From IMG/VR virus record IMGVR_UViG_3300025519_000061, positions 1 to 32,407 of that record: DNA of 32,407 nt; one strand, written 5' to 3'. Each line of letters opens with the position of its first letter. The stretch's first letter is position 1. This DNA comes from a virus. Taxonomy: Duplodnaviria; Caudoviricetes. A program made the translations under genes and the position numbers. This document shows positions 1,359 to 22,935 of this stretch, in pieces. The notes under the pieces are model-generated. The model was not told where the DNA came from and did no database searches. It saw nothing but the letters and a program-made list of their open reading frames with translations.

Positions 1359-1856
1359 TTAAGGTGCTTCATTAATTTTAGGTTTAACAGCTTTATTTTC
1401 CGTTTTATCAGAGGAAGATTCATTTAATACATTAGTTAATATTTTTAGTGATATTTTTAAAATTCGATAGGACGAGAAAATAACAAAAGAGAACAAAGAT
1501 ATGTAGATAACTACTAATAAATTTGAGAAATTTCCCTTATAATCAAGAAAAATAAATAAAATTATCGAAAAAACCACTAAGAATAATCCACCTATTACAG
1601 TTTCAGCAATATAAGAAGTTAACAATCCATTTCCGCCTGCCTCATTTATATTTTTCATTACCTCTGAATTTGTTAAGGAAATAAAGATCGATACCATAGT
1701 ACTTAAAAATGCAATAATAATTGCTGAAAATGTAACAGTTGCAGATAATATTTCTTTAAAATTCTCAATGTCATTAATTTCCAATCGAAATATATAAATG
1801 ATAAAACCTAAAAAGATACTGATTATATATGGGTAGGTTCTTTCGATGATTCTCAC
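1359..1856 (-). CDS. Membrane protein with ~4 TM helices (RexB/KwaA-like effector candidate)
   Basis: 165-aa ORF with four hydrophobic segments, GGAGGTG RBS and GTG start. Confidence 0.8.
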   Translation of the reverse strand: MRIIERTYPYIISIFLGFIIYIFRLEINDIENFKEILSATVTFSAIIIAFLSTMVSIFISLTNSEVMKNINEAGGNGLLTSYIAETVIGGLFLVVFSIILFIFLDYKGNFSNLLVVIYISLFSFVIFSSYRILKISLKILTNVLNESSSDKTENKAVKPKINEAP

Positions 1857-1873
1857 TAATAAACACCTCCATT

Positions 1874-2788
1874 TTATACATAAGTGTAATTAATTTCCTC
1901 AACTCTCTTTCTATATAATGTATGCATTCGACTTATCACAGTTTCATGAAGAATATTTCTGGCTTGTGTATCAAAATCAGATTCCTTAAATTGATAGTAA
2001 TCTACCAATCTATGTTGAATTAAATCAACCGGTTCGACACTTGAATTTTCATCAGCTTTTCTTCTAACTTCTAATTTTTGCACGTTGGGATCATTAACCA
2101 TTTCTTCTATTTCCTCATATATTGGAATTCTGCTTGATTTCTTAGAACCCTTTGGCTCAATACTAATTTTAAATCGTATGTTTACAGACTCCTTTATATC
2201 ATCTGCTTTATCTAAAATTTGACCTAGTGACTTTTTAGTTGTAGTTCTTGCGTTTTTTATATCTGAAATCGATATTTCTGCACTTCTAATTAGATGGTCT
2301 TTTCTTAATAATTCAACTGCTCTTGGGTGAATCAGTGGCCTAAAAATCACGTTAAAACCTGGTTCATTTATCACAGAAGTAAAATAATTTGATACGGCCG
2401 TTGGAGAAAGGCTAAACCTATTCCTCCTCATCATAATAATGTAGTTTGACGGATCATATAATGCTGATATCTCTTCTCCTAATCCCTCATCATCCTCGAA
2501 ATCCTCAAAATAACTATATGTACCATCATCCTTAGTGATTATTGGGAAATCACTTTTACGAATTCGAACAAAATGAAGATTCCACTTATCATTTATACAT
2601 TCAAGATTTTGCAATCTTGCTTGATCATCTCCCATCCAATATACCCTTTCAGTTACTTGAATTCCTTGCAATTGCCTAAAAAGATCAGATAAATCACATG
2701 GTATCTCCTCAACTACTTCCTTTTCTTTATTGTATCTGGTAGCATAAACTTTAAAATAATCAAATCTTACATTTTTACTTAATGCCAT
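1874..2788 (-). CDS. Soluble ~304-aa protein, DUF6731-like by recollection (RexA-like sensor candidate)
   Basis: N-terminal VRFDYFKV and EGLGEEISALYD...MRRNRFSLS motifs. The start is moved to ATG 2788 behind GAGGGG. The family call is tentative. Confidence 0.7.
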   Translation of the reverse strand: MALSKNVRFDYFKVYATRYNKEKEVVEEIPCDLSDLFRQLQGIQVTERVYWMGDDQARLQNLECINDKWNLHFVRIRKSDFPIITKDDGTYSYFEDFEDDEGLGEEISALYDPSNYIIMMRRNRFSLSPTAVSNYFTSVINEPGFNVIFRPLIHPRAVELLRKDHLIRSAEISISDIKNARTTTKKSLGQILDKADDIKESVNIRFKISIEPKGSKKSSRIPIYEEIEEMVNDPNVQKLEVRRKADENSSVEPVDLIQHRLVDYYQFKESDFDTQARNILHETVISRMHTLYRKRVEEINYTYV

Positions 2789-2831
2789 TACATTCATCCC
2801 CTCATTGTTATTAAGATAGTTCACTAGACAT

Positions 2832-2925: not shown

Positions 2926-3837
2926 TTAATCCACATCTTTTTTATAAACCCACGAAACTATATCTTTAAGCAGCACCATATCGCTTTTTACTTGTTGGAT
3001 AGTGTAAGTGTTACCTTTAACCCAGCTAGGGATAGACTGACCTGTCGCATACTTAGATGCTGATTTTTTAATTTTAACCTTTTGGCCAACTTTAAAATCC
3101 TTAGGTTTGGATCCAGTCACTTTTAAAACTTGGCCAGGATAGATCGTATCACTAGTTAATCCGTTTAGAGATTTTAACTCGTTGACCGTCATTCCGTATT
3201 TTTGACTGATCCCCCATAGCGTATCGCCGGATTTGACTTTATACGTGCCACCTGCTTGTGGTTCTGGTGCAGGTTTTGATTGCGTTTTTTGCTTTAGCCC
3301 AAAGGCTTTTTCAAGTCCATTGACATGACCTTGGGCTATCCGGTCAATCCATGAGCTCTGTTTTAATTTTGCTGCATCCTTGGCATTATCGATAAAAAGA
3401 TTTTCTGTCAATATAGCAGGCATACTTGATTCTCTTACCATGTGGAGATTCGCTTCTTTCTCACCACGGTTAACGACTTCATTCCCTAATGCCTGGATCA
3501 CTTGGCCGTGAATAATGCTTCGTAACCGATTGGTTTCTTGTTTTCCGCTGTATGCTTTGTTATACGTGTACGATTCAAACCCTGTTCCGCCGCCTGCGTT
3601 AATGTGGACGCTAATTAGGTAGTTAGCACCCCAAGCATTCGCCATGTCTGTACGTTGTTTTAATGCTAGTGTTTTGTCAGTATCACGACTTAACTTGACC
3701 TCTACACCTTTGTAATTGGCTAATTTAGCTTTAATTTTTTTGGAGATTGCTAACGTTAAGTTCTTTTCTTTTAAACCATTTCCAACAGCCCCAGAGTCCG
3801 AACCACCGTGTCCTGGATCAATGAATATTTTAACCAT
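2926..3837 (-). CDS. Endolysin: Amidase_3 N-acetylmuramoyl-L-alanine amidase, LysM and a C-terminal SH3-like domain
   Basis: IFIDPGHGG, E, SVHINA and ILTENLF zinc-amidase motifs; YKVKSGDTLWGISQKYG LysM. Confidence 0.95.
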   Translation of the reverse strand: MVKIFIDPGHGGSDSGAVGNGLKEKNLTLAISKKIKAKLANYKGVEVKLSRDTDKTLALKQRTDMANAWGANYLISVHINAGGGTGFESYTYNKAYSGKQETNRLRSIIHGQVIQALGNEVVNRGEKEANLHMVRESSMPAILTENLFIDNAKDAAKLKQSSWIDRIAQGHVNGLEKAFGLKQKTQSKPAPEPQAGGTYKVKSGDTLWGISQKYGMTVNELKSLNGLTSDTIYPGQVLKVTGSKPKDFKVGQKVKIKKSASKYATGQSIPSWVKGNTYTIQQVKSDMVLLKDIVSWVYKKDVD

Positions 3838-4097
3838 TATTTTTCATCCTCCTTTTTAAGATTTCTTACCATTTCAAAGGAACCGGTACTTGCCAAACCA
3901 CTTGCTAGACCACCGAGTAAAATCTGTGGGGTTAATGACCATGCATTTAACCAAACATTGAGTAAAACCCCTAACACAGCCATGATTAATGGTATATACT
4001 TGTTTGGCACAAAATCTAAGCTGTTTTTAATGATGTAGCCAAAACATAGACAAATGGCAGCAACTAAAACTACTACGTAATCTACTAAAATTTCCAT
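3837..4097 (-). CDS. Holin
   Basis: Hydrophobic ~86 aa with PNKYIPLI and GLASGLASTG motifs and a basic tail; AGGAG RBS; abuts the lysin. Confidence 0.85.
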   Translation of the reverse strand: MEILVDYVVVLVAAICLCFGYIIKNSLDFVPNKYIPLIMAVLGVLLNVWLNAWSLTPQILLGGLASGLASTGSFEMVRNLKKEDEK

Positions 4098-4137
4098 CAA
4101 TGTTTCTCTCCTTTTTAATTTGTTTATATAAAAACGA

Positions 4138-4356
4138 TTACCGTGGCGGCAATCGCTCTTCAATGTCATCAAGTTTTGTGATGACAATGTCGTACTTCGT
4201 GCTAAAGTTTTTCAAAATCTCGTTTTGATCATCAATGACTTGATTTAACTTCTTCTCACGTTCCTGTGCCTCCTTTCTACTCGAGTAAAAAAGCCAAACA
4301 AAAAGGACCGCGAACGGCCCTTGTGTCACAAAATATTGAATTAAATTTGCGTCCAT
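4138..4356 (-). CDS. BhlA/UviB-family holin-like protein
   Basis: QGPFAVLFVWL...KEAQEREKKL signature. The start is at 4356 or 4371. Confidence 0.85.
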   Translation of the reverse strand: MDANLIQYFVTQGPFAVLFVWLFYSSRKEAQEREKKLNQVIDDQNEILKNFSTKYDIVITKLDDIEERLPPR

Positions 4357-4391
4357 AATCACACCGTCCATTAAATCAATTTAAGTAAAAC

Positions 4392-4772: not shown

Positions 4773-4803
4773 TAAAATAAGTGTCCATTTTATGTGGACA
4801 CTT
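4773..4803 (-). terminator. Hairpin/terminator after the tail-spike region
   Basis: Perfect 9-bp inverted repeat AAGTGTCCA/TGGACACTT followed by ATTTT. Confidence 0.65.
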
Positions 4804-4817
4804 CTTACTATTTTTCA

Positions 4818-6208
4818 CTAGATTACGTCAGTAATATTAAGCCCGTCAGGGATGTACGTGCCTCTAAATGCTTGCAATACAATTTCCATGTCATCTCCTG
4901 AATATACAGAATAGGTGTCCTTGCCACCACCATTACAATTTACTAACACTAGTTTACCTTTGGTTGTGGCACCGTCATTATCTGCTCTAAATGCAGATCT
5001 TTGAATCTGGTTATTGGCTAACCCGTCTTGCGCGGTACAATCATAGTATACAGATAAACAACCATTCGCGTCATTAACAACAGGACCTGTGCTTTCGAAG
5101 TACAAGCCATAAACTCTTAAAACACAAATACCGTCGTGTGCTGTGGAGCAATTAGCTGTCCTAGTAGTAGAAAATTTACCGTGTCGATAACTTGTACAGT
5201 TATATTCGACGACTAAACACTTTCTTCTATCTTCCGAAGAAACACTGCTGTAGTGATAATTAAACCCATCCTCTCCACCATACGCCGCAATACAACTAAA
5301 CAAAAATATATTCTTTACATTTTTGAAAGATATCGCATTTATTTCATTGTTTCTATTAATTCTTAAATCTCCGCCTGCAAAAACAGAATTATTCGCAATA
5401 AAAGTTCCTGACACCCCACCCGTAGTACTAGCTGTAATAACCATTGAATCTGTGCTTCTACCATGTAAAATAATACAATTTTCAACATATAGTTCGGCAT
5501 TATTTATTAATGTTGGTTCGAAATGTGCGCTTGATACATTAATGGCATAGTTTGCGTCATTTGGAGGCTGTTCGTCCCATGTGTGAATATAAACATAATC
5601 GTTATCAAAGTACCAAGTACCTTTTTCGCTATGGCATTCCGCAAGCGAAATTTTGTTTTCTAAAGGTATTGGTACGCCGTATTCATCTTTATGGCGCAAA
5701 TCAAATACCGAGTAAACCCCAACGTAAGCTGTTTTCCATGTGCCAGTTTCATCCTGTTCCCAATTTAGCCCGGGATAATGACTAGTGATATACACTTTTT
5801 CATCAGGGTTAGCAGGCATATAGCAATAGTTTTCCCGTTTATAGTGCGGTTTCTAACACCTCTTATTACGTGCGGACTAAGACACTTTATTACAAATTTA
5901 TTACCTGGTCGTGCCATTGCTTCATCCACTGCATAATACATATCTAGGTATGGTTTTTCTCTCGAACCGTCACCTGTGGAATTACTACCGTTATTTGAAA
6001 TAAAAATTTCTTCCCCGTCTCTATACTTCTCAAAGTTAAAATCATGATGAATCTTACCATCGTTTTTTCTGATAATATTAAAAGGCAAAGGAGCAAATCC
6101 ATCTGTCGTTTTTAACATGAAACCTAATGAACGTTTTAAATCTTCTAAGGTTGCTTTTTCTGCCAGTTGTGTTGTAACCGACTCATATTCTTGGTCTATT
6201 TCTTCCGT
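4818..6208 (-). pseudogene. Orphan tail-spike C-terminal module (right-handed beta-helix, depolymerase-like); no RBS or start at its 5' end; frameshift near 5820
   Basis: The frame opens at 6208 as TEEIDQEYESVTTQLAEK... and contains IFISNNGSNSTGDGSREKPY. One missing base at GCT AT^ATG CCT joins ORFs 5765-6118 and 4818-5819, which carries EDGFNYH and NCSTAHDG rungs. Confidence 0.7.
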
Positions 6209-6220
6209 TTACGCTATTAA

Positions 6221-7969
6221 TTAAAATTTAGTTCCAGGGTAGTCTTCCGTTATTGTTCCAGTCTCCACCTCTCTCCAATGTTCAAACGCTCTCACATCAT
6301 CAGTAGGTGTAAACTTAATTAATATCCTTTGTCCTCTCATTTGTAGTGTTCCTGATGTCGTTTTCCAATAAAATTTAATTTTTACAGGATTCGCAAACTG
6401 ATTAGTAGGAACAATTACCTTACCTGCATACATCAAATTTGCTTCGGTTCTTCTACCGCCGTCAACCATTACTTCAGTGTTGTATTGTTGGGTTGGCAAG
6501 TCAAGATGATTCGCACCACCTGTTCCACCACTAGTACTATAACGTTCATTACGATTTTGTTCGATTGAACAAGAAAAATAATTAATCGAATTAGGATCTT
6601 CATTAATGTGATTAAATATTGCATGAATTTCTATTAAGCCATGTACAGCAGGATAAAAAGTATACGTGTATTCACTTATTTCTTCCCAAGATGTTGACGT
6701 AGTGGACTTTGGAGGATGGACTCCGCCTGTTAATTTACCTGTCATTAATATTACTTTTGGTTCGCTTACTTTTTCGTATTTAATATTATTGCATAATGTA
6801 GCTTGTACAATCATATTCCCAAAAAATTCTACCATTCTTGTAATATCAGGTATAGATTCAACAGGATCAAACGCACCTCTTACCCATTCGGTCGAAGCAG
6901 TGATCATTCCAAAATTTTCGGCTGCATAGTTAAAATCAGTTGCTTCGGGTATAACGTCTATCATAGTATCGGGTTTTACTGGTGCTAAAGCATGCATTAT
7001 TTGAGCATAAAGATTCCCCATCGAATTATTGTGTATAGGTATTGCTGTATACATTTGATGCGAATCTTGTTTGGTGTCTGTATTGTGAAAATCCATGTAC
7101 AAATGAGCATCAGGATAACTTTCAAAAACTGTTTTCAACGCAATTGTTTCCGGTTCAGAGAAAGGTGCTGGACCACCATGCTCATTACCTGTCCAATTGT
7201 AATCAAAGTTTCGGTTAATATCTACACCGTTTGAGTTATATCTATCATGATTATTCAATGCCCACGGGTTTATAATTGGAACTACCACGATTCTTACGTT
7301 ATTACGCATGTATGCCATTTGTGGGTATTTGTCGTAGTCATAGCAGATGTGATGCATCACTCGCAAAAGTCCTCTAAATCCTAGTAGTTCTGACCCATGT
7401 ATTAAACTGCTCAAAATGATCGTTTTTTCGTATTTTTCAGGTTCAAAAACATATTTATAAATATCAAATTGACCTGAGGCATCTTTACTTAAAAATGTCT
7501 TTGTAATGTACTCAGGATAATCATTCATTAGAGCGTCATATTTTGCATAATAGGCACTAGTAGTTGCTCCGCCACCACCAGGAGCAATTTCACCTGCCGA
7601 TGGCTGGGTAGGTGCTTTCCATAGATCATGTGGACTGCCACTAAAAATGATAGTTTTTTCCAACTGCGCATCAACTTTATCCATTCGTTTTCCGATTGTT
7701 GTATATGATTGTCCGTCGTATCCGGACACTCTTGCGTCAACAACTTCGGCAGCACTCGGATTTTCGAGTGACATATTCGCAATCTGCTCATCGTATTTTT
7801 TCGCTAGGCTTGCTTGTTTTGTTTCAGTTGATTGACTCCTAGAGTTTGCTTCATCAGCTATATTTCCAGCTTCTTCAATTCCAGAAGCCAATGATTCCCG
7901 GACTTCTCGTCCGTATATTTTTGTGCGGATGTCATCAGCTAATTGTTTTATTTTCGTTGGTATTGCCAT
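6221..7969 (-). CDS. Tail spike/receptor-binding protein: N-terminal anchor, M14 zinc carboxypeptidase domain and beta-rich C-terminus
   Basis: N-terminal IRTKIYGREVRESLASGIE and EVVDAR tail motifs; HGSE, NSNGVDINRNFD, SEPET and DFH M14 motifs. Confidence 0.85.
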   Translation of the reverse strand: MAIPTKIKQLADDIRTKIYGREVRESLASGIEEAGNIADEANSRSQSTETKQASLAKKYDEQIANMSLENPSAAEVVDARVSGYDGQSYTTIGKRMDKVDAQLEKTIIFSGSPHDLWKAPTQPSAGEIAPGGGGATTSAYYAKYDALMNDYPEYITKTFLSKDASGQFDIYKYVFEPEKYEKTIILSSLIHGSELLGFRGLLRVMHHICYDYDKYPQMAYMRNNVRIVVVPIINPWALNNHDRYNSNGVDINRNFDYNWTGNEHGGPAPFSEPETIALKTVFESYPDAHLYMDFHNTDTKQDSHQMYTAIPIHNNSMGNLYAQIMHALAPVKPDTMIDVIPEATDFNYAAENFGMITASTEWVRGAFDPVESIPDITRMVEFFGNMIVQATLCNNIKYEKVSEPKVILMTGKLTGGVHPPKSTTSTSWEEISEYTYTFYPAVHGLIEIHAIFNHINEDPNSINYFSCSIEQNRNERYSTSGGTGGANHLDLPTQQYNTEVMVDGGRRTEANLMYAGKVIVPTNQFANPVKIKFYWKTTSGTLQMRGQRILIKFTPTDDVRAFEHWREVETGTITEDYPGTKF

Positions 7970-8042
7970 TTTTTATGACCTCCTTCAAAAGTTGCTCGCT
8001 TAACTCTTTGATTTTCTGTGCTAAATCGCTTATTTTAGCCAT
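7935..8042 (-). CDS. 35-aa ORF MAKISDLAQKIK..., possible relic spike N-terminus
   Basis: ATG overlaps the Tal stop, GAAGGTG RBS; overlaps the start of the spike gene. Confidence 0.35.
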   Translation of the reverse strand: MAKISDLAQKIKELSEQLLKEVIKNGNTNENKTIS

Positions 8043-9516
8043 TGTTCACACCTTCTAATGCTACTACTCTAGCAACTAAATCATCTAAATCAACCTCATT
8101 TACGACTGTAATTTTGTTTAATTTTATTTTGTCGGCTGCTATCATTAGACCATCCGTTGTAGGAGTAACAGGGCCGTAATTAGGTATTTCGTCTATTGCT
8201 GTATTCAGATTATCTATTGCTGTTTGCAAGTCAGATACCGCTTGTTCCAGTGCAGGTATATCATTTTCAGCTATTGTTTGTTGGACTTCTTTCACTGCGT
8301 TATCAACGGTGGTTAATTCGGTTTTTAAAGTTGCAATGGTCTGCGTTTGCTGATTAACTGTACTTTCTAACTCGACGACCTTTTGAGCTGATTTGTTTGC
8401 TTCGTTTTGGTACTCAGACAATGTTTTAAATTTATCGCCAATAGTCAAATCACTACTTTGTGGTTCATTGATGTTTATTGACTTTCCAATAATTCGGAGA
8501 CGTTCATCTATCCCCATGATTGGATTTTTAACTGGATGAGAGTTACCAACATCCAAATAATCAATGTCTAAACCTATTAAAAATAGGTCCAGTGCTGCTA
8601 TTTTATATTGATTTAATGATGTTTTCTGATTAGCAAACCAATCTTGTCCTTTACTTAACAGATTGTTTGGATCCGTTACATCATCCCAAGTTACCGCCCC
8701 ACCTTGTATACCAAACTCCTGTTTTAATGCTTCATTGTCGATATAAGGTACTCCATTGTTTACACTTTCAATTGTCAGTCTAGCTTCAGATGCATCTGTT
8801 GCAGTTTCATCTTCGCTTTCTACTCTTGCTCCTAATGGTGTCAATCTAGTTATAATTTCTGTTGGATCCACATCTACACTCATACTTACAAGGTTTTTAG
8901 CAATCTTGATTTCGGTTGACTTATCCTCCCCAACTCGGACTAGATAATCTAAAAAACGAACACCGTTTTCCTTTCGGATTTGAAGTTCGCCACCCAACCT
9001 GTCTATTAATTTTTCTTTGATAGTATCAAATGTACTTTTATCTGCTGAAGTATATAAATAAACATAATCGTTCGGATCAATTACCGTTACGTTTCCTATT
9101 TGGAATTGTTTGTACGTTTCTACTTGGCTATTATGATAACTAAGTAATTCAGTCAGTAATTCTTCAGGTGACCCCCTAAATTCTCGGTGTTTTTGCATGC
9201 TGTCGTGCAAATAGCCAAGTTCTCCCTCACATTCGTAAGACTCATCAAAAAGACCGCTTGAATCCATGTTTTTAGATGGACCAAGAACACGACCTTCGAA
9301 TTCATATTTATTTGTTTTCAGATTCAGGACATTAATCAAGGTCTTTAATGGCTTTATCTTTCCATATGCGGGATTGTTTAGATAAAAAGAAAAACTAAAT
9401 GAATCAATCTTATTAATCTCTTTTTTTATCGTACCAGCTGGTAGTTTTAAGTCATTTACATATGGACTATGAATAACTGTTTCTATCCCATCATTAATTA
9501 TTGTGACTTTGTACAA
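8035..9516 (-). CDS. Tal/baseplate hub (prophage tail endopeptidase family) with coiled-coil C-terminus
   Basis: Follows Dit; IITRLTPLG, SVNNGVPYI and WDDVTDPNNLL motifs. Confidence 0.85.
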   Translation of the reverse strand: MYKVTIINDGIETVIHSPYVNDLKLPAGTIKKEINKIDSFSFSFYLNNPAYGKIKPLKTLINVLNLKTNKYEFEGRVLGPSKNMDSSGLFDESYECEGELGYLHDSMQKHREFRGSPEELLTELLSYHNSQVETYKQFQIGNVTVIDPNDYVYLYTSADKSTFDTIKEKLIDRLGGELQIRKENGVRFLDYLVRVGEDKSTEIKIAKNLVSMSVDVDPTEIITRLTPLGARVESEDETATDASEARLTIESVNNGVPYIDNEALKQEFGIQGGAVTWDDVTDPNNLLSKGQDWFANQKTSLNQYKIAALDLFLIGLDIDYLDVGNSHPVKNPIMGIDERLRIIGKSININEPQSSDLTIGDKFKTLSEYQNEANKSAQKVVELESTVNQQTQTIATLKTELTTVDNAVKEVQQTIAENDIPALEQAVSDLQTAIDNLNTAIDEIPNYGPVTPTTDGLMIAADKIKLNKITVVNEVDLDDLVARVVALEGVNNG

Positions 9517-9517
9517 A

Positions 9518-10231
9518 CTAAATCAACTCCTTATAAAAAATAAAGGAGATAGTGCCATCACCATTTATCTTTAAGGTATTTTCTCCACTTTTTAGCATAA
9601 AATCTTGGTCCCTCGTTTTGCCAGGAGCAATTGTATAACTTACACCATCTTTTTCTATTGTCATTAATGCAGATGTATTAATTTCTGGTATAACATCAGG
9701 GGTTCCCGGATTAATGAGTGTAACTTCTAATGTTCCATTTACTTCAAAACCAACTGTTTGAGCCACATCTATTTCAAAATTAAAGCTATCCCAGATATCA
9801 TTCCCCTCTGGAAGTTCTGCAATCATAAACGGATATGCTATAAAGTTGACTGTTAGAGCTCCAGTATCCCAGTTTTCCCGAAAAGAAGCTTCGTTCTCGA
9901 CTTCTGCTAAAAAATAATAGCCAGGGATTGCGTCATCATAAAGTTTCTGCTTTCCATGGCTATTCATTAACCAATTAATTAAAACGGTTTTAAGGATAGT
10001 TAATTTATGTTTGGTATTTCCCTTAGGATCCACAAGATTAAAAGTATAAGATAATTTTCGTGACGTATATGTCTGCGAACCGTACATTTCGCTAAAATCA
10101 TACTCAACGTTGGAAAAAGGTACCTTTATCTTGATTTTTTCTTTTTCTGGAAATCCAATATCTCTTTCTGATATTGTAAATCCCATATCTTTAAAAGAAT
10201 GTTTTCCAAGATAATTAATTCCGTACCACAT
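9518..10231 (-). CDS. Distal tail protein (Dit)
   Basis: Follows TMP; GKHSFKDMG N-terminus and LKSGENTLKI C-terminus. Confidence 0.85.
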   Translation of the reverse strand: MWYGINYLGKHSFKDMGFTISERDIGFPEKEKIKIKVPFSNVEYDFSEMYGSQTYTSRKLSYTFNLVDPKGNTKHKLTILKTVLINWLMNSHGKQKLYDDAIPGYYFLAEVENEASFRENWDTGALTVNFIAYPFMIAELPEGNDIWDSFNFEIDVAQTVGFEVNGTLEVTLINPGTPDVIPEINTSALMTIEKDGVSYTIAPGKTRDQDFMLKSGENTLKINGDGTISFIFYKELI

Positions 10232-22371: not shown

Positions 22372-22935
22372 CTAAAAAGAAAGTCGTTTTGTCTGTTCGT
22401 CCATCATCTCTTGCGTGACTCCGATGTACATTAAAGTGATGGTTTCATTGGAGTGATTGAACATTTTCATTAGTAACGCTAAGTTAGAAGGATTCTGCAT
22501 GTAAAGATGATATCCATATGTTTTTCTCATCGTATGAGTACCAATTTCTGTAAGACCAAAATGTTCTCCTGCTTCTTTTAACATGCGATAGGCTGTACTT
22601 CTATCTATTGGTTGACCTTTTATTTTGCTCTTAGTTTTTTTCTGTCTACTCTGAAATAAGTACTCATTATCATCTTTTCCAGCAATAAAGGTATTTAAAT
22701 CCTCTCTTATTGATGGATGTATGAGGAACTTTTTAGCTTTTCTCGTCTTACTCTCAATAATGTTTACATGTGTACCCTTGACCATACCAACACGTAAACT
22801 AAGTAAATCACTTACTCGAAGGCCACTATAAATCCCCATACAAAAAAACAAGTAGTTACGTAAACTCCTTGCTTTCAAGTATTCTTTGATTCCTTTAATA
22901 ACTTTTGGATCTCGAATCGGTTGTACAAAATTCAC
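22372..22935 (-). CDS. Small tyrosine recombinase (catalytic domain only)
   Basis: GLRVSD (R), SKT (K), HTMRK (HxxR), FNHS (H), YIG (Y); 187 aa. Confidence 0.92.
   Translation of the reverse strand: MNFVQPIRDPKVIKGIKEYLKARSLRNYLFFCMGIYSGLRVSDLLSLRVGMVKGTHVNIIESKTRKAKKFLIHPSIREDLNTFIAGKDDNEYLFQSRQKKTKSKIKGQPIDRSTAYRMLKEAGEHFGLTEIGTHTMRKTYGYHLYMQNPSNLALLMKMFNHSNETITLMYIGVTQEMMDEQTKRLSF

Follow-up and report, generated by a model that had tools for sequence, protein, structure and literature searches.

Swaps of receptor-binding domains are one of the main ways in which phages change host, and are usually ascribed to ordinary or illegitimate recombination between phages or to inversion within a genome. 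In integrons, the tyrosine recombinase IntI is found by a strong attI site, cassettes stand in arrays with repeated attC sites between them, whose substrate form is a folded single strand, and carry degenerate half sites, crossover occurs at a fixed base and a LexA-like box precedes some recombinase genes; in Rhs/CDI systems, orphan C-terminal modules are the rule. Here we analyse the tail-spike locus of a Caudoviricetes prophage, IMG/VR record IMGVR_UViG_3300025519_000061 (positions 1 to 32,407, the whole stretch analysed, hereafter the window), in which a start-less second module lies behind the spike gene. Judging from comparison with relatives, the spike is probably a fixed anchor joined to an exchangeable cassette, which lies between two sites, L and R, and is swapped between co-resident phages, likely by a phage-encoded Xer-like tyrosine recombinase acting at a GG dinucleotide.

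The closest published system is the Rin shufflon of Bifidobacterium prophages, in which a XerD-like tyrosine recombinase without an arm-binding domain is encoded beside a receptor-binding gene of constant N-terminus and variable C-terminus. One crossover site lies in the gene and another, directly oriented, just past its 3' end; the enzyme inverts among several Rv genes of one genome at identical 11-bp asymmetric rix sites, and a second locus is proposed to use an enzyme in trans (PMC6109161). The likeness lies in the combination of an in-gene and a post-gene site and possibly in the recombinase type, the Xer-like gene being present in relatives and absent from the window. In contrast to Rin, our loci showed no Rv arrays (a second L site with a long frame occurs in 1 of 58 genes) and no inverted partner sites: the high-scoring sites of the window are all on the minus strand, and reverse-strand scores reach 13 in 2 of 21 recombinase loci. 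Moreover, the two 34-bp split palindromes L and R differ from each other, their spacers included, and each phage carries one 1-4 kb cassette with cargo, so that the variety lies between phages. The Gin, Cin and Min systems, which that paper describes as serine invertases with inverted sites and a fixed small repertoire (PMC6109161), resemble the present one in changing the C-terminus of a tail fibre site-specifically and thereby host range. Tailspike mosaicism of E. coli phages (PMC10408124) shares the conserved anchor, the exchanged receptor-binding domain and the conserved flanking motifs; the available portion of that report describes no palindromic site or dedicated recombinase, whereas a site and a candidate recombinase are present here. 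Our literature search, which covered few subscription papers and no supplements, found no account of these sites or of the recombinase position.

The arrangement of anchor, L, module (often with cell-surface genes) and R appears to be common to the window and dozens of relatives. It recalls integrons in having a recombinase near a strong site, degenerate cassette-side half sites, a fixed-base crossover and a LexA-like box. It differs in lacking cassette arrays (extra genes in relatives L416, L417 and L426 come without a further scoring site), in producing an in-frame protein fusion instead of promoter read-through, and in a recombinase that falls below the IntI cutoffs. The start-less module behind an expressed gene is reminiscent of Rhs/CDI loci, but here it is the one case, and a frameshifted one, and L and R share a frame in 8 of 24 loci; this does not fit a reservoir of common, intact orphans that can be restored in frame.

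Split palindromic sites around the spike cassette

The spike locus comprises the following elements, all on the minus strand.

7662..7969, minus: N-terminal spike anchor, codons 1-103 (phrog_14448 at residues 5-100), 79-84% identical in 14 relatives with other modules
7642..7675, minus: site L1, with a 14-bp left arm (7675-7662), 6-bp spacer GGAAAA (7661-7656) and degenerate right arm (7655-7642)
6221..7661, minus: expressed cassette, the spike's M14 zinc-carboxypeptidase-fold module (PF00246, E 3.5e-17; phrog_4722, E 7e-71)
6187..6220, minus: site R1, whose left arm belongs to the cassette; after the spacer GGAAGA (6206-6201), the backbone arm breaks off past its first 3 nt (AAT)
6165..6200, minus: tail remnant of an anchor from another family (DQEYESVTTQL stretch), aligning with anchor tails of L315, L341, L342 and P0025 and ending in the L2 left arm
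6145..6178, minus: site L2, spacer GGCAGA (6164-6159), opening the orphan; top L score of the window (24.5)
4818..6164, minus: orphan spike module, predicted beta-helix and pseudogene, without ribosome-binding site (RBS) or start and with a one-base frameshift near 5820 (phrog_16653, phrog_32409)
4779..4817, minus: contains a hairpin (4803-4779) common to relatives L004, L006, L254, L260 and L053 (R score 21 in L053)

A sequence-only reading of the window had placed the switch from anchor to enzyme at GCG CAG TTG GAA AAA (7669-7655, from codon 101) and assigned the enzyme to family M14. Both points hold, the Peptidase_M14 match covering spike residues 178-298 (E 3.5e-17); akin modules occur in L006/P0014 and L426 (28%). 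A search with spike residues 1-106 returned 37 proteins, the window's own included, of which 14 are 79-84% identical and then run into unrelated modules right after AQL(A). A QLA-like motif is found at residues 85-150 in 28 of 36 homologues, and the modules joined to these anchors are of GDPD, pectate-lyase-like, deacetylase, SGNH, CHAP and M14 types; divergence sets in at one sharp point, the QLA junction, and not at scattered positions. Anchor searches of 301 and 91 genomes returned mostly long, pre-neck-appendage-like proteins without the junction, so that many phages lack the exchange system.

Codon choice shows a constraint on L at the DNA level, synonymous codons being fixed beyond what the protein needs. 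In a set of 25 loci, retrieved through the protein, the recombinase or the R motif and none of them picked by L DNA, the junction leucine is TTG in 23 (4.9 expected), codon -4 ends in T in 24 (10.4 expected) and codon +4 ends in G in 16 of 23 (3.6 expected); the third-position excess is similar at four neighbouring codons and weak at a fifth. When the 32.4-kb window is scored for L with a position weight matrix (PWM), the two junctions rank first and second (L2 24.5, not in the training set; L1 21.1, in it), ahead of the next score of 12.5. R1 has an R score of 8.4 and ranks seventh in the window, since its right arm is broken. An exact repeat search between the window's junctions gave nothing, as the sites are degenerate. 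A strict L pattern, too strict for counting, matched 10 times in 401 genomes against 5 for a control, 4 of the 10 being spikes, and a scan of genome contigs added 2 distant loci.

L, within the spike gene, and R, after it, are directly oriented sites of 14+6+14 bp (34 bp). The left arm of L, which is coding, and the right arm of R, which is not, form 14-bp inverted repeats around a 6-bp spacer; the non-coding copy lies up to 2.7 kb away, and at each site the arm facing the cassette is degenerate. This is the layout of loxP/dif-type cores, with two inverted 11-14 bp arms around a 6-8 bp asymmetric spacer; a complete natural case is the R site of L296. The post-stop look-alike proposed in the sequence-only reading, GCG TAA ACG GAA GAA ATA, is indeed present at 6214-6197 in the spike frame, 6 nt past the stop (6223-6221), and a conserved motif, R, does follow the modules: the 14 nt of R1 recur at the stop of a different module in L004 and L005 and behind an inserted gene in L006, and its spacer follows five unrelated left sides (L006, L016, L018, L254, L260). 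A 14-mer post-stop scan of viral contigs gave 119 stretches, about the chance expectation, and the R pattern had 0 matches in 16 genomes.

Pairing of the arms was examined in two further sets. In test 1, on 90 viral stretches retrieved by the L-arm pattern alone plus 10 genome matches (training copies, duplicates and short loci dropped), GG+4 plus at least 11 of 14 positions of the locus's own inverted arm was found within 3.5 kb downstream in 13 of 25 spikes, against 1 of 38 chance loci (Fisher p 5e-6) and 1 of 22 upstream windows. In test 2, on 70 stretches picked by the window's own arm, an R score of at least 15 was reached by 12 of 17 spike rows (10 of 14 without three known loci) and 1 of 28 non-spike rows, the latter (L491) being a mislabelled spike. 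A first R test by PWM alone had been noisy (score of at least 12 in 14 of 52 negatives versus 15 of 25 spikes), and the own-arm test was used instead. The arms also covary, with 237 matches to the own arm versus 218.7 +/- 3.8 after permutation (n=21); L256 and L283 match at 14 of 14 positions.

The point of exchange can be read from pairwise identity profiles. In 15 pairs with like anchors, identity extends up to spacer position +1/+2 and then drops, and in 7 pairs with like backbones it begins at position 0, which places the exchange at the GG dinucleotide, at the spacer edge as in loxP/dif-type sites. The third spacer position is C in 39 of 42 L sites and A in 23 of 24 R sites; the L spacer is inherited along with the cassette, that of R along with the backbone, and these unlike spacers (GGC and GGA) would favour replacement over self-excision. 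Cassettes often hold cargo open reading frames (ORFs) read as Wzy-like, SGNH and acetyltransferase genes, and R closes module and cargo ahead of the holin or the next tail gene. Each phage has one cassette, and the sites, their inverted-repeat outer arms and the base-sharp exchange are well supported.

Two relatives carry sites of unusual context. In L296, 2712 nt past the spike stop, a complete palindromic site with a full left arm and an anchor-like peptide stands at the end of a membrane-protein cargo gene and resembles an empty site. In L254, the R site and backbone are present, and the upstream 851-aa ORF is of a different build, without a QLA-like regex match.

The start-less module behind the spike

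The window runs in the order anchor, L1, M14 module, R1 broken after 3 bases of its right arm, 42 bp from the tail of a foreign anchor, L2 and the orphan, with no R2 before the hairpin; relatives have an R site at that place, but here the best R score near 4820 is -4. The second junction, CAA CTG GCA GAA AAA, lies at 6169-6155, as had been read. The sequence-only reading saw behind it some 460 codons of a different, beta-helix-type module; a different, start-less module is there, though not in one frame, as it consists of 147 codons in the spike frame (6208-5768, then a stop) and 344 codons in another (5852-4821). Both halves align with the single protein P0038 (61% and 63%) and likewise with the single protein P0039, so the orphan is one module broken by a one-base frameshift near 5820; P0038 and P0039, its whole counterparts, sit on other anchors. 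No RBS-like sequence precedes 6208, 6118 or 5819, whereas GGAGG precedes the starts at 7969 and 4706; with both halves matching single proteins, 6118 and 5819 are not independent starts. Across the frameshift region, assembled contigs X1 (10.6x) and X2 (95x) show 0 differences, and either may be the window's own source. The beta-helix assignment agrees with an AlphaFold model of the 3' half (pLDDT 93.9), whose best fold matches are beta-helical tailspikes and lyases, weak ones (4ru4, E 3.8e-5, TM 0.30). A PDB sequence search with the orphan profile gave short, weak matches, and a search of viral contigs with the 3' half found just the window's own copy.

That the orphan is the displaced C-terminus of this spike, kept as a recoverable reserve, as had been proposed, is not supported: its leader is like the anchor tail of another family (L315, L341, L342) and not like the spike's own anchor, it is frameshifted, and its R is missing. 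Downstream sequence of at least 1.5 kb was available for 58 L-site genes, a count that takes in a few chance non-spike rows; the window is the one case among them in which a second L site opens a frame of more than 6 codons. By these comparisons the orphan is a broken one-off, not a reserve, and is now a pseudogene, whichever route formed it. As to in-frame excision between 7669 and 6214, also proposed, L1 and R1 are indeed in frame and 1455 bp apart; its product would be truncated, since the orphan is frameshifted and lacks its own R site.

The window is likely an aberrant product. R1 would have been mis-joined to a look-alike stretch 42 bp upstream of L in the spike gene of a second phage with another anchor family, stranding the second spike module, which would later have decayed. 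Alternatively, the M14 cassette may have been inserted into a double-junction gene like those of L016, L315 or L330; the spacer of L1, which is of the R-like GGA kind and unusual among L sites, helps this alternative. With regard to double junctions, an in-frame spacer of 35 codons (RTSNEIV...) that brings its own L site is found in L016, L315, P0002, P0006, P0009, P0011 and P0025, on two or more types of anchor, and L330 has a 7-codon double junction.

Candidate recombinase and competing explanations

A 330-aa Xer-like gene lies 200-500 bp behind R in L294 and L340. The L294 protein displays the R-K-H-R-H-Y motifs and scores 224 bits against NF040815 (cutoff 220), below the XerC and XerD equivalog cutoffs (226 vs 335 and 214 vs 330 bits) and those of integron integrases (TIGR02249, 104.6 vs 265 bits; NF011946, 65.8 vs 435). 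Close relatives occur in 15 of 401 genomes, so it is not a universal chromosomal gene. Among 22 further loci fetched by the recombinase protein alone, 16 have it after tail genes and/or before holin/Tal, the tail context being annotated for phiCp-D (MW478291) and TPELB_ph1 (PP197244, which holds a second integrase) and read from translations elsewhere. The place of the family is thus between the tail genes and holin/Tal, and sites lie upstream of it: within 5 kb on that side, a site score of 13 or more is reached in 11 of 21 loci, versus 2 of 21 on the reverse strand. L426 unites the window's anchor family, an M14 module, L, R and the recombinase. A LexA-like box precedes the gene in 6 of 23 loci versus 0.7 for the control.

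Several further features of this family were seen. In L220, L404, L407, L408, L417, L419, L422, L423 and L428, the recombinase promoter is directly preceded by small antisense genes whose products read as HTH/RHH regulators. In L418, L420, L422 and L423, myovirus-type tail-fibre loci lie beside the recombinase family, and their L-like arm encodes VTTH or AHK-type peptides, not QLA. Family members outside the tail context occur in L413 (near a groEL-like ORF), L414, L415, L421, L425 and L427, some of them broken; a short palindrome with a CAAAGA-like spacer lies just upstream in L413, L414, L415 and L425, and such loci are perhaps chromosomal capture platforms.

The window's own catalytic-domain-only tyrosine recombinase (187 aa; 22372-22935, minus strand; phrog_216), located before the packaging genes and 42-49% identical to ORFs of other phages, was rejected as the enzyme, as it fails to co-occur with the sites. 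PF00589 ORFs of 181-186 aa are found in four site-bearing records (G759, G760, G769, G780) and in three without QLA junctions (G796, G797, G800), and are missing from the near-complete, site-bearing G758, G761, G773, G774 and G783.

Based on the above data, we propose that cassettes, each an enzyme or receptor module often with cargo, would trade between co-resident phages at L and R, with strand exchange predicted at GG, the left edge of the spacer. An Xer-like enzyme and a replacement mechanism are likely. We infer that the L294-type enzyme acts on L and R, a role that must be deduced, as only 3 of 38 site loci have the gene in cis and the window lacks it; it would work in trans for phages that carry the sites alone (the window and 35 of the 38 site loci). 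This would be replacement of one cassette rather than an Rhs- or integron-like reserve, given that the orphan is frameshifted, has a foreign anchor tail and no R, and is the one case in 58 genes.

Several points weigh against this proposal. The evidence for recombination comes from sequence comparison. The training sets of the PWMs, 42 L and 24 R sites, were our own choice among relatives. In test 1, no strong inverted arm lies within 3.5 kb of 12 of the 25 spikes, and the labels of spike and chance loci were set by hand (test 1) or by a rule that mislabelled one row (test 2). The codon-test loci are akin by descent, so that p-values overstate their independence, and both permutation and codon tests were run on related loci without correction for descent. 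Cargo and holin identities in relatives come mostly from reading translations. As to the enzyme, 6 of 22 recombinase loci are outside the tail context, 10 of 21 have no scoring site, and beyond the few in-cis cases among site loci the second set adds one (L475). Lastly, contigs of four runs (X1-X4) contain no L1/R1 excision joint; contigs drop rare variants, so absence is not established.

Three other explanations deserve comparison. Ordinary mosaicism, in which homologous or homeologous recombination (by phage single-strand annealing proteins or RecA) in the conserved anchor and the conserved lysis region would swap the modules and the motifs would be mere conserved boundaries, we regard as unlikely. 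It agrees with the exchange of anchor and receptor domains at conserved motifs in E. coli phages (PMC10408124), with the absence of the recombinase from most site loci, and with the 20 of 39 orphan-module homologues that have no QLA-like motif by regex, some showing near-variants. It leaves unexplained, though, the fixed synonymous codons, the covarying inverted arm copy in non-coding DNA up to 2.7 kb away, the degenerate cassette-side copies at both sites and the position of the recombinase. A different objection is that the sites are real and the enzyme is a host XerC/XerD-type recombinase or the prophage integrase, the adjacent Xer-like gene being a passenger. Near-complete site-bearing records do hold just an end-placed, integrase-sized match (G758, G761, G773) or no PF00589 match at all (G774, G783), but integrase types vary among site-bearing phages and the L294 family is enriched directly beside sites, and we give this version little credence. 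Bacillus dif is presumably unlike both L and R.

The integron- or Rhs-like array of the sequence-only reading, in which a cassette would form a circle and enter at L, displacing older modules downstream into a silent reserve restorable by excision, is also improbable in our judgement. The window shows the order it predicts, with L1 and R1 in frame and their spacers 5/6 alike; double-junction genes exist, the R site of L296, its left arm complete, looks like an empty site, extra genes stand between R and the recombinase in L416, L417 and L426, and spacer inheritance fits circle integration as well as double exchange. Against this, one orphan in 58 genes, frameshifted, led by another anchor's tail and without R, does not amount to routine displacement into a recoverable state; R is out of frame with L in most loci, and contigs of the four runs hold no joints. 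Neither the palindromic structure of the sites, nor the cargo genes, nor the candidate recombinase had figured in that reading.

More tentatively, exchange of one cassette at L and R may be widespread in phages of Bacillota: an SOS-inducible Xer-like enzyme would act on incompatible GGC L and GGA R sites as a public good in trans for most of the phages, which carry the sites alone, and a module with matching surface-modifying cargo (host range plus superinfection exclusion) would travel as one unit across siphoviruses, myoviruses and host families. With a site pair defined and an enzyme proposed, spike swapping can be put directly to the test in a plasmid assay. The two would account for the base-sharp boundary between anchor and module of many Bacillota tail spikes, and for the hitherto unexplained second 'integrase' that annotation places between the tail and the holin genes of cultured phages. 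The sites offer a simple way to mine depolymerase modules with linked surface-modification genes, and enzyme and sites are possibly a new recombinase/site pair for genetics.

Genomic context of the spike

The window is a prophage, and its gene content suggests a host in the phylum Bacillota. Its late operon, on the minus strand, runs in the order tape measure, Dit, Tal, spike (7969-6221), start-less module (6208-4818), holins and amidase. The neighbours of the spike locus are these.

9518-10231, minus: Dit, upstream of the spike (phrog_33/phrog_3558/PF06605 matches of the Dit-Tal region)
8035-9516, minus: Tal-like tail protein, upstream of the spike (same matches of the Dit-Tal region)
2926..4371, minus: two holins and an amidase endolysin, downstream (PF10960, PF16079, PF01520)

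Three weaker site-like stretches lie among small early/middle genes at 24968-24935 and 24786-24728 on the minus strand (best L 12.5, R 13.9), and are possibly chance or another cassette point. A two-gene moron 3' of the endolysin (1359-2824, minus strand; phrog_10865, phrog_17119) encodes a DUF6731 protein and a membrane protein, and may be a candidate defence pair.

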